This document shows positions 207 to 1,170 of a stretch of 64,000 nt of DNA, one piece after another. The position numbers were made by a program, and so were the translations under genes. The first letter of the stretch is position 1, and each line of letters opens with the position of its first letter. The stretch spans positions 1,097,838 to 1,161,837 of the forward strand of contig CBDAVG010000002.1 in assembly GCA_965200865.1 (NCBI GenBank), given 5' to 3'. A model generated the notes under the pieces. That model did not search any database, was not told the DNA's origin, and was given only the letters and a program-made list of their open reading frames with translations. The DNA is from an uncultured candidatus Porisulfidus sp. (GTDB lineage: Bacteria > Pseudomonadota > Gammaproteobacteria > Poriferisulfidales > Oxydemutatoraceae).

Positions 207-441
207 TTGACAGGATTAGCATTTATGTTACTATCAAAATAATTTTTTATAACTGGTTAGTCCAGTTTATATTTTCCACGCGGTCAAAGACTGCACTCTA
301 AACTGGCGAAGCAAGTGCTTCGCTATATCTAACCTGCAAGCATGCTAACTAGAGTTTGTTTGTATATTTTTAACTACCTGCAGGGGAAATTTCCCCGTGG
401 GGAAATTCTCCTTTGCGGCATAATCAAAAAGGAGAATTATT
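207..441 (+). promoter_or_regulatory. Leader module copy 1. Near-consensus sigma70 promoter (TTGACA 207-212, 16-nt spacer, TACTAT 229-234) followed by a conserved ~200-nt structured leader. The leader has the inverted repeat GCGAAGCA-AG-TGCTTCGC and the palindrome GGGGAAATTTCCCC, and ends in AAGGAG-N7-ATG.
   Basis: Read directly from the sequence; the same ~230-bp module recurs at 931-1170 and, more diverged, on the minus strand at 7375-7616. Confidence 0.55.
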
Positions 442-861
442 ATGGGACTTGATATGTATATGTTCAAACATAGCCCGATATCTAACTTCGATATTACTAA
501 GGCGATGTTGGAATATAGAGACTCAGATAAACCAGAACTTTTAGGAACTTGGAGAAAAAACAATAGACTCCATGGTGCAATGAAAGAACTTTGGTTGAAG
601 AAAACTGGTCAGAATGATGACACAAATAATTTGTTCAACTGTCGGAGAGTTTACCTTTCGGTTGAAGATTTAGATCAACTTGAAACCGATATTAAGAATA
701 AAAATCTTCCGTACTGTAGTGGGTTCTATTTCGGAATAGATTTCTATAAATGGCCCAAGAACGAGCAAGAGCAAGAAAATGAACTCACTTTCAACATCTT
801 TGCAAAAGCGCGAAAAGCATTAGCTGACGGTGATTTGGTCTACTACAACAGTTGGTGGTAA
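442..861 (+). CDS. Hypothetical small protein (139 aa) encoded behind conserved leader module 1.
   Basis: ORF with RBS AAGGAG 7 nt upstream; no recognisable motif; a hairpin terminator follows. Confidence 0.6.
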   Translation: MGLDMYMFKHSPISNFDITKAMLEYRDSDKPELLGTWRKNNRLHGAMKELWLKKTGQNDDTNNLFNCRRVYLSVEDLDQLETDIKNKNLPYCSGFYFGIDFYKWPKNEQEQENELTFNIFAKARKALADGDLVYYNSWW

Positions 862-891
862 ATTTTTGATCTTGCTGTTTATCAAAAGTCT

Positions 892-911
892 AGAGCACCA
901 TTTGGTGCTCT
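892..911 (+). terminator. Hairpin AGAGCACC-ATTT-GGTGCTCT followed by a T-rich tract; likely terminator of ORF 442..861.
   Basis: Perfect 8-bp stem seen in the sequence immediately 3' of the stop codon. Confidence 0.45.
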
Positions 912-930
912 TCTCTAATTGCTTTGATCA

Positions 931-1170
931 TTGACAGACTTGGCATCCGCATTACTATCAAAATAATTGCTTTATGACTGGTTAACACAGTCTAATATTT
1001 TTCATGCGGTCAAAGACCGCACTCTAAACTGGCGAAGCAAATGCTTCGCTATATCTAACCTGCAAGCAAGCCCTAATAAGGGCATGCGTGCATATCTTTT
1101 ACTAACCCGCAGGGGAAATTTCCCCGCGGGGAAATTCTCCTTTGCGGCACAATCACAAAGGAGAATTATT
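931..1170 (+). promoter_or_regulatory. Leader module copy 2. Sigma70 promoter (TTGACA 931-936, 16-nt spacer, TACTAT 953-958) plus the conserved structured leader, in front of the RadC-like gene.
   Basis: About 90 percent identical to 207-441 across the promoter, hairpins, palindrome and RBS. Confidence 0.55.

Follow-up and report, generated by a model that had tools for sequence, protein, structure and literature searches.

The stretch of DNA analysed here (the window) comprises 64,000 nucleotides from an uncultured candidatus Porisulfidus sp. (contig CBDAVG010000002.1). Its positions 1 to ~15,300 are one end of an integrated conjugative element, in which a promoter-plus-leader module recurs ahead of different accessory genes. 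This module is probably a portable cassette, in which a strong sigma-70 promoter is joined to a structured 5' untranslated region (5'-UTR) of ~205 nt that acts in cis on translation via a two-state switch at the Shine-Dalgarno (SD) sequence. On the best reading of the predicted folds, the module would keep accessory genes of the integrative and conjugative element (ICE) translationally repressed until a signal flips the switch. An earlier sequence-only reading had suggested a cis-regulatory RNA, and this idea is upheld by a conserved, structured 5' leader that is reused ahead of unrelated genes and by covariation within it.

The window contains four copies of the module: A (207-441) and B (931-1170) on the plus strand, and C (7617-7375) and D (~166-24) on the minus strand. 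The sequence-only reading described A and B as about 90% identical. They are indeed near-identical, with a mean column identity of 89% over 281 columns that include the flanks (180-450 versus 900-1180), but the figure is slightly lower, 84%, in a global comparison from the -35 hexamer to the base preceding the ATG. The motifs that it listed were also found: the near-consensus promoter TTGACA-N16-TACTAT in A and B (10/12 matches); a perfect 8-bp hairpin, GCGAAGCA-AG-TGCTTCGC, at 306-323 (the loop is AA in copy B); the 14-bp palindrome GGGGAAATTTCCCC, exact at 383-396 and 1112-1125 (chance expectation 0.23 at <=2 mismatches); and GGGGAAATTCTCC, taken for a second half-site, together with the ribosome-binding site AAGGAG ahead of the ATGs at 442 and 1171. 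The genes behind A and B are unrelated, as claimed, one encoding a 139-aa protein with no Pfam match and the other a RadC-like JAB protein (E 8e-44). Copy C, which has diverged in sequence and lies ahead of an open reading frame of 97 aa, is the third copy to which that reading alluded. Copy D is a fourth, shorter variant, oriented divergently to copy A, and its gene leaves the window at the start.

Relatives were found with nhmmer and two covariance models, one of the 5' domain (R1) and one of the 3' switch (R2). There are 15 copies in all, each immediately 5' of a start codon; 11 of them lie outside the window, on the metagenomic contigs L030, L031, L073, and L075. Contigs L030 and L031 were reached through homologues of a RepA-like protein, L073 and L074 through homologues of RadC, and L075, a 1.3-kb Tara scaffold, through a homologue of the 139-aa protein. 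The RepA proteins of the related elements are 72-82% identical. The leaders precede at least seven unrelated gene families, namely RadC (three copies; B, L030a, and L073b lie directly ahead), the 97-aa protein (three copies), the 139-aa protein (two copies), a 413/414-aa protein (two copies), and three families of small membrane proteins of 64-76 aa (five copies). On L074 and L076, the leader-driven genes have more distant homologues, which come with different leaders.

The module is uncatalogued and narrowly distributed. No Rfam family matches it, and the radC motif (RF01754) gave no match at the gathering threshold, none at E <= 1 over window positions 1-9000, and none at E <= 10 over window positions 150-1200 and L073 positions 8400-13000. 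An exact-pattern scan of ~185,000 species genomes with GGGGAAATTTCCCNNNGGGGAAAT returned 0 matches, while the looser pattern GGGGAAAN{0,2}TCTCYTTTGCGG returned 41 matches, all of which are chance occurrences without the upstream arm. Pattern scans of JGI metagenomes yielded 29 loci, all unrelated and several of them eukaryote-like repeats, and those of IMG/VR viral contigs yielded 0 matches. In a blastn search of PLSDB (72,556 plasmid records), copy B had no match at E <= 1e-3. Exact look-ups with three proteins of the window and with the proteins P0001 and P0015 retrieved no contig.

Two of the distant contigs show arrangements of their own. The element on L074 (72-5130) has a RadC that is 61% identical and lacks the leader; AATGTAAAC(C/T)CC boxes precede three of its genes, three of four copies read AATGTAAACCCCCC, and an RNase III-like gene overlaps the end of its ParA-ParB operon. 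On L076 (180-311), a homologue that is 52% identical to the 139-aa protein is preceded by a different leader, in which twin hairpins share CGCTATTCGCG cores and the SD could be paired with a UUCUCC box; this leader may be an analogous but unrelated device.

The leaders fall into several types that share a common 3' end. Long leaders (types I and II) consist of the promoter, four hairpins (H1-H4), a U-rich tract, an A-C-C linker, and a 65-nt 3' element. Short leaders (type III and a truncated form that follows the 413-aa gene) have another 5' hairpin and the same U-tract, linker, and 3' element, such that three different 5' domains carry one and the same switch. The -35 and -10 hexamers are conserved in all seven long copies extracted and lie upstream of the structure; as to the concern that transcription might start downstream of the conserved region, the predicted promoter is upstream of it in every long copy. 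In the window, the modules are monocistronic units, each with a hairpin after the gene. Among the long copies, the 3' 45 nt are the most sequence-conserved stretch, and the leaders as a whole diverge about as slowly as coding DNA (76-90% versus 76-94% nucleotide identity).

The 65-nt switch reads CCGC-A-GGGGAAA / UUUCCCC-GYG / GGGGAAAUU-C-UCCUUUGCGG / N13 / AAAGGAGAAUU-AUUAUG and can be divided into four segments. Segment 1 is GGGGAAA within an SD-like arm, CCGCAGGGGA; segment 2 is UUUCCCC; segment 3 is GGGGAAAUU, which runs on into the anti-SD UCUCCUUUGCGG; and segment 4 is the SD itself, AAAGGAGA. In the OFF fold (1:2 + 3:4), a short hairpin (CCGC:GYGG + GGGGA:UCCCC) stands beside a 10-12-bp anti-SD:SD helix that buries the SD. 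In the ON fold (2:3), UUUCCCC pairs with the downstream GGGGAAA and CCGCAGGGGA pairs with UCCUUUGCGG to form one hairpin of 18-20 bp, which leaves the SD single-stranded. The predictions therefore contain what defines an SD-sequestering riboregulator, that is, a stable, conserved anti-SD:SD helix and a mutually exclusive fold that releases the SD. The OFF fold is the predicted minimum-energy fold in 11 of 12 copies, with ON lying 0.1-9 kcal/mol higher; in switch A, the energies are -27.2 (OFF) versus -24.9 kcal/mol (ON), and in switch B, -35.9 versus -27.3 kcal/mol. Neither state of switch A was reached by any of 300 shuffles. When the upstream part was subjected to dinucleotide shuffling, neither energy was reached in five of eight copies and only rarely (0-3 of 300) in another two; the result for L073d, at 29 and 8 of 300, is clearly weaker. 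The RNA folds of A, B, and C are likewise much more stable than those of shuffled sequences (z = -6.8, -8.5, and -5.8).

Both folds have been conserved in the course of sequence divergence. Across 13 sequences, 91.7% of the OFF pairs are kept and seven pairs have changed on both sides; in the anti-SD:SD helix alone, 88.7% of cells pair. On the same alignment, which was fitted to OFF, 97.3% of the outer and inner ON pairs are kept, with exchanges of G-C for A-U and of C-G for U-A. Moreover, the ON helix contains near-invariant G.U pairs, at columns 8:44 (11 of 12) and 9:43 (10 of 11 scored sequences). These wobbles are as expected of a two-state design, in which the short hairpin needs the G as a partner for C and the OFF fold needs the U as a partner for an A of the SD. 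In particular, copies D, L030b, L073d, L075a, and L075b have differing arm sequences (e.g., GGGGAUACCC/GGGUAUCUCU, GGGACUUCCC/GGGAGGUCUC, and GGAGAGACUUCCCC/GGGGAAUCUCUCC) and keep both folds.

The 5' domain of the long leaders is also well supported. H1-H4 are separate hairpins with variable loops, and they were found independently at the same places in seven of seven single-sequence folds. Covariation was counted on covariance-model alignments, since type II stems are misaligned by plain MAFFT, which makes that alignment unreliable for the purpose. For H1-H4, the alignment comprises eight copies; its cells are paired in 91.1% of cases, and both sides have changed in 18 of 34 pairs (38 cells in total); none of 500 shuffles was as good, and pairing falls to 32-39% when partners are slid by 1-3 columns. 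Compensatory changes include ACUGG/CCAGU versus GAUCAG/CUGAUC in H1, GCGGUC/GACCGC versus GCGAUU/AAUCGC versus ACACGG/CCGUGU in H2, and GCGAAGC/GCUUCGC versus GCGGAAU/GUUCCGC versus GCAAAAC/GUUUUGC in H3, while the inner helix of H4 is hypervariable in sequence yet paired in every copy. The covariation thus goes well beyond what a recent duplication would leave.

Several further features were considered and set aside. An RNA thermometer is not favoured by the predictions: the probability that the SD is unpaired, which ranges from 5e-7 to 0.2 at 37 °C, is nearly flat or gradual over 15-45 °C and does not exceed ~0.2. A conserved antisense promoter was rejected, the only candidate being a CATAAT that is created by the start-codon context and lacks a conserved -35; promoter scans of the copies found neither such a promoter nor an antisense RNA gene. 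A leader peptide was also dropped: ATGs within H4 are absent or in differing frames, and a GUG upstream reading frame occurs in copy A only. A pseudoknot between the H1 loop and the linker (GGUUAGU:ACUAACC) is present in A, B, and C and absent in L031a, L073a, and L073b.

It can be envisaged that the short hairpin forms first during transcription and that the anti-SD would then capture the SD, so that the mRNA would be born OFF. By binding to segment 1 or 2, or by opening the SD helix, a trans-acting factor might shift the balance toward ON; segment 3 could then invade the short hairpin by branch migration, as segments 1 and 3 share GGGGAAA, and lock the ON state. As a result, all leader-bearing genes would be translated together. 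Candidate factors are Hfq together with a small RNA (sRNA) where the U-tract lies between hairpins, a protein of the CsrA type bound to the three GGA boxes, or even the first ribosome. A more far-reaching version of this scheme, which we consider rather unlikely, is that the leader serves as an element-wide tag of a post-transcriptional regulon: the genes would be strongly transcribed and translationally silent, and one trans-acting factor would flip all of them, e.g., upon entry into a new host, with the shared leader as a scaffold into which cargo is plugged. Such a factor could be an RNA-binding protein encoded by the element or the host, or an sRNA directed to the U-rich tract or to the SD-like arm.

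A number of observations weigh against a translational switch. All evidence for structure is computational, and it comes from ~15 sequences of only 3-5 lineages in alignments fitted to covariance models. Copy L073c is predicted to adopt the ON fold only, and in the fold of full-length copy A the long hairpin is the minimum-energy structure. Pairing between SD and anti-SD is easily obtained by chance because the SD itself is invariant, and the predicted effect of temperature is mild. Reading of the leader sequences revealed no conserved leader peptide, and no CsrA-like gene was found nearby by a motif search of six-frame translations. Finally, sense and antisense strands fold with nearly equal energy overall (-508 versus -478 kcal/mol), which makes strand indecisive from energy; the RNA polarity therefore rests on the promoter, the logic of the SD pairing, and the G.U pairs of the ON helix.

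The palindrome could instead be a DNA operator, as the sequence-only reading also proposed. Here, GGGGAAATTTCCCC and the inverted repeat AATTCTCCTTT-N13-AAAGGAGAATT would bind a repressor of the element that blocks elongation or loops to the promoter, with zygotic induction after transfer as the result. The perfect palindrome in A and B, the high conservation of the 3' 45 nt, and the two inverted repeats, which consist of Watson-Crick pairs on either strand and appear in DNA folds as well, are compatible with this view. However, the site lies ~150-200 nt downstream of the promoter, and in L031 and L073 the pairing persists although the palindrome is broken (GGGGAGTATTTCCCC and GGGAAAGAAATTTCCC). 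The arms of copies D, L030b, L073d, and L075b are unrelated in sequence and yet form the same two folds, even within one element; that arm sequences differ and pairings persist in diverged copies of the same element argues against one shared DNA-binding repressor. Since the ON helix also needs 3-4 G.U pairs, which are meaningless in duplex DNA, an operator appears quite improbable, and the palindrome and supposed second half-site are better described as segments 1, 2, and 3 of the switch than as two operator half-sites. A single-stranded DNA element of the Frpo/ssi/sso kind, whose hairpins on the transferred strand would act as an early promoter or priming site in the recipient, we regard as extremely improbable. 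It would explain the repetition of ~250-nt homologous non-coding modules ahead of different accessory genes, which parallels Frpo copies and ssi sites before accessory or establishment genes of conjugative elements (Masai & Arai 1997; PMC11541004), and DNA folds that are more stable than those of shuffles (z -3.2 to -8.7). In Frpo, though, the -35 and -10 lie in a long stem with their complement when single-stranded, and the leading-region genes are reported to lie on one strand (PMC11541004), whereas the promoter region of the leaders is unpaired or weakly and locally paired (both strands of A, minus strand of B), has no complementary stem partner, and represents an ordinary duplex promoter outside the stems. 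The copies face both ways (A and B on the plus strand, C and D on the minus strand), whereas only one strand is transferred, and the conserved design is centred on SD/anti-SD pairing at the RNA level, with an ON helix that depends on G.U pairs. The lack of a blastn match to copy B in the 72,556 plasmid records, among which F-like plasmids are expected, points in the same direction, Frpo sequences not having been compared directly.

Transcription attenuation, also named by the sequence-only reading, is only weakly suggested. H4 and the U-tract would here form a leaky terminator that releases an sRNA of ~150 nt (H1-H4) and permits regulated read-through, with the switch in a secondary role. In every copy, the switch is indeed closely preceded by a hairpin (-7 to -17 kcal/mol) whose next 10 nt include 4-7 U, and an alternative pairing between the 3' arm of H3 and the 5' arm of H4 can be drawn in type I and in L031a. 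The stem base of H4 is, however, AU/GU-rich and a terminator scan does not call H4 with its U-tract, copy C does not preserve the postulated antiterminator pairing, and the U-tract is degraded in L073d and L075b, all of which makes this explanation unlikely. A riboswitch also seems unlikely: the loops vary, and because one and the same switch is joined to three different 5' domains, no ligand-binding aptamer stands out. It could further be argued that the leaders have no regulatory role and are promoter-leader DNA that was recently duplicated and spread by recombination, with incidental hairpins. A and B are 84-89% identical, and it is precisely at the leaders that relatives differ in their cassettes, so recombination among leaders does happen. 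Nevertheless, the compensatory double changes in 18 of 34 stem pairs, the survival of both switch folds through extensive arm divergence, and the conservation of the leaders, which is on a par with that of coding DNA between elements with 72-82% identical RepA proteins, make the absence of a role highly unlikely. Nor does the module resemble the end of an insertion sequence or an integron site, another possibility raised earlier: it lies 5' of genes and has its own promoter, attC core sites (GTTRRRY/RYYYAAC) were not seen on reading the sequences, and neither a transposase nor an integron integrase gene adjoins the window copies.

The SD switch that we favour combines traits of several known systems. 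In the rpoS 5'-UTR (regulated by DsrA, RprA, and ArcZ with Hfq) and in riboswitch platforms, an upstream anti-SD sequesters the SD, and an alternative partner frees it. The leaders share this principle, and the A/U-rich tract between their hairpins would suit Hfq; unlike in rpoS, the competitor strand is part of the leader, where a hairpin holds it locked, and the element is portable and present in multiple copies. In trp and erm attenuators, a ribosome on a leader peptide sets the choice between folds, and the output is termination (trp) or SD exposure (erm). The four-segment topology, with mutually exclusive 1:2/3:4 and 2:3 pairings, is the same here, but no conserved leader reading frame was seen in the sequences read. 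The mRNAs of type I toxins (hok tac/fbi; Helicobacter pylori aapA1, PMC5416894) contain successive local hairpins that keep the SD unavailable in the primary transcript. Metastable sequestration and the small membrane proteins encoded by several of the genes recall these toxins; in contrast to them, no antisense RNA gene was found, and the same leader also drives RadC and the 413-aa protein. The radC RNA motif (RF01754; Weinberg et al. 2010, PMC2864571), named for radC, is a candidate cis-regulatory 5'-UTR RNA of Proteobacteria, of unknown function. The leaders resemble it in that three of them (B, L030a, and L073b) directly precede RadC genes. The radC motif also precedes other DNA-related genes of mobile elements. 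The leaders differ from it in giving no covariance-model match in the stretches searched, in having four hairpins and an SD switch, and in also preceding small membrane proteins and proteins of unknown function.

Comparison of the related elements suggests that the genes behind the leaders are exchanged as cassettes. Synteny of the divergent type III/type I intergenic region extends from the window to L030 (88% identity) and L075 (68% identity); the type I leader of this region precedes the 139-aa gene in the window and L075, and RadC directly in L030. Leader B, the second one, and RadC come after the 139-aa gene in the window. The 413-aa gene of L031 and L073 is driven by the type II leader, and behind this gene a truncated leader precedes the 97-aa gene; the type II leader of the window is joined straight to the 97-aa gene. 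The breakpoints fall in the leaders, which fits homologous recombination between copies; as a side effect, the repeated leaders may thus double as homology for the exchange of gene cassettes.

The proteins encoded behind the leaders are poorly characterised. The 139-aa family has ~75 unnamed homologues and occurs in plasmids and phages, including jumbo phages. Its AlphaFold2 model is confident (pLDDT 90.8), but no solved structure matches it, the best hits (YfbM and the DNA mimic DMP12) being non-significant at E ~0.4, and its structural relatives are uncharacterised phage proteins only. In RefSeq, the plasmid homologues (H1-H15) are labelled 'phosphoglycerate kinase', which looks wrong because of the size of the protein; one plasmid homologue is encoded just upstream of a large ParB-family gene. 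The small leader-driven proteins (64-97 aa), including the 97-aa protein and those behind type III leaders, are each charged in their N-terminal part and carry one hydrophobic helix at the C-terminus. The sequence-only reading had likened the region to anti-defence-rich leading regions; in family and structure comparisons, nothing ties any of the downstream proteins to anti-defence.

The element itself is of the PFGI-1/ICEclc type, as judged by a TIGR03756 ICE protein (236.6 bits; cut-off 188) and its location next to a tRNA gene; its ParB matches TIGR03764 below the cut-off, and neither an oriT nor a relaxase was found within the window. From the tRNA-Ser gene inward, it encodes ParA, a PFGI-1-like ParB, the TIGR03756 protein, and a RepA-like protein beside 23-bp iterons, followed by a pair of DUF5131 and DndC-like proteins, a 986-aa methyltransferase-like protein, and an EEP-family nuclease, and the leader-bearing genes are interspersed through this accessory stretch. 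The iterons (~17 in tandem, 11104-11494) adjoin and partly overlap the RepA-like gene (9887-11140, minus strand), and together they look like a plasmid-type oriV inside an integrated element. The DndC-like sulfurtransferase homologue (TIGR03183, 301 bits) is an orphan, being encoded with DUF5131 at 7959-9863 (minus strand) with no other dnd genes nearby; a C5 DNA methylase takes the place of the DndC-like gene in L031 (5597-7310). The 986-aa protein (3947-6907, plus strand) resembles N6-methyltransferases and MAD2-like proteins only faintly (E 1e-4 to 1e-6) and may be an orphan or fused DNA-modification enzyme. Beyond the element, the chromosomal part of the window (~17000-60000) contains many families of repeats that resemble repetitive extragenic palindromes (REP-like; 45-290 nt), with hairpins TAGGGGCGGATTTATATATCCGCCCTA and GGGAGGGCATGTTAGCCCTCCC, e.g., at 21675-22174, 24383-24886, 49510-50624, and 54774-55286; repeat arrays include an 84-bp tandem (x5), a 250-bp unit (x2), and a 171-bp unit (x3; 54774-55286, inside the span of an open reading frame at 54345-56075, plus strand).

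Table. Coordinates of the modules, their genes, and the element boundary (window positions unless a contig is named; promoters, helices, and switches are predicted).
Feature	Position	Strand	Remarks
Copy D, short type III leader	21-166	-	nhmmer match 103-26; R2 covariance-model match 81-21, E 0.021
Copy D, parts		-	extended -10 TGGTAAGAT 166-158; 5' hairpin 132-98, then U-tract; two-state switch 80-47; SD AAAGGAGA 39-32; ATG 23-21
Small-protein gene behind copy D	1-23	-	product begins MSKLTLN
Promoter A	207-234	+	TTGACA-N16-TACTAT; TG upstream of -10
Leader A, 5' domain	235-376	+	H1 251-267, H2 280-294, H3 304-325, H4 335-364; U-rich tract 365-371, then ACUACC linker; R1 match 240-380
Switch A	377-441	+	SD-like 5' arm with palindrome 377-396; anti-SD 3' arm 399-418; SD AAAGGAGA 428-435; R2 match 376-444
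139-aa gene	442-861	+	start MGLDM invariant in family
Promoter B	931-958	+	TTGACA-N16-TACTAT
Leader B, 5' domain	959-1104	+	H1 976-992, H2 1005-1021, H3 1030-1051, H4 1061-1092; U-rich tract 1093-1101
Switch B	1105-1170	+	5' arm 1106-1125; anti-SD arm 1128-1147; SD 1157-1164; R2 match 1105-1173
RadC-like JAB gene, 198 aa	1171-1767	+	terminator-like hairpin 1772-1801
97-aa gene behind copy C	7081-7374	-	small-protein gene; C-terminal transmembrane helix; orthologues behind leaders in L031, L073
Copy C, type II long leader	~7617-7375	-	-35 7616-7611, -10 7594-7589; H1-H4 inside 7581-7437; switch 7440-7375; SD 7387-7380
ParA gene	14409-15245
tRNA-Ser(TGA)	15306-15395	-	adjoins ParA gene; marks element boundary
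pdxA	15588-16565		beyond tRNA-Ser; then ordinary chromosomal genes
Copy D orthologue, L030	8950-9110
Copy D orthologue, L075	300-235
Small-protein gene, L030	9108-9329
Small-protein gene, L073	8436-8630
Small-protein gene, L075	34-237

If a two-state SD switch is indeed what these leaders encode, they would add a structured RNA family to the few cis-regulatory elements that are tied to accessory genes of conjugative elements. The nearest examples, the radC and STAXI motifs, are to our knowledge functionally unexplained after 15 years, and the design of the present family is unusually readable, with four segments and two explicit folds. Should one signal flip all copies, early and accessory genes of the ICE would be coordinated by translation and not only by single-stranded promoters or repressors. 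Moreover, the shared leader would let new cargo genes join this programme by simple homologous recombination.

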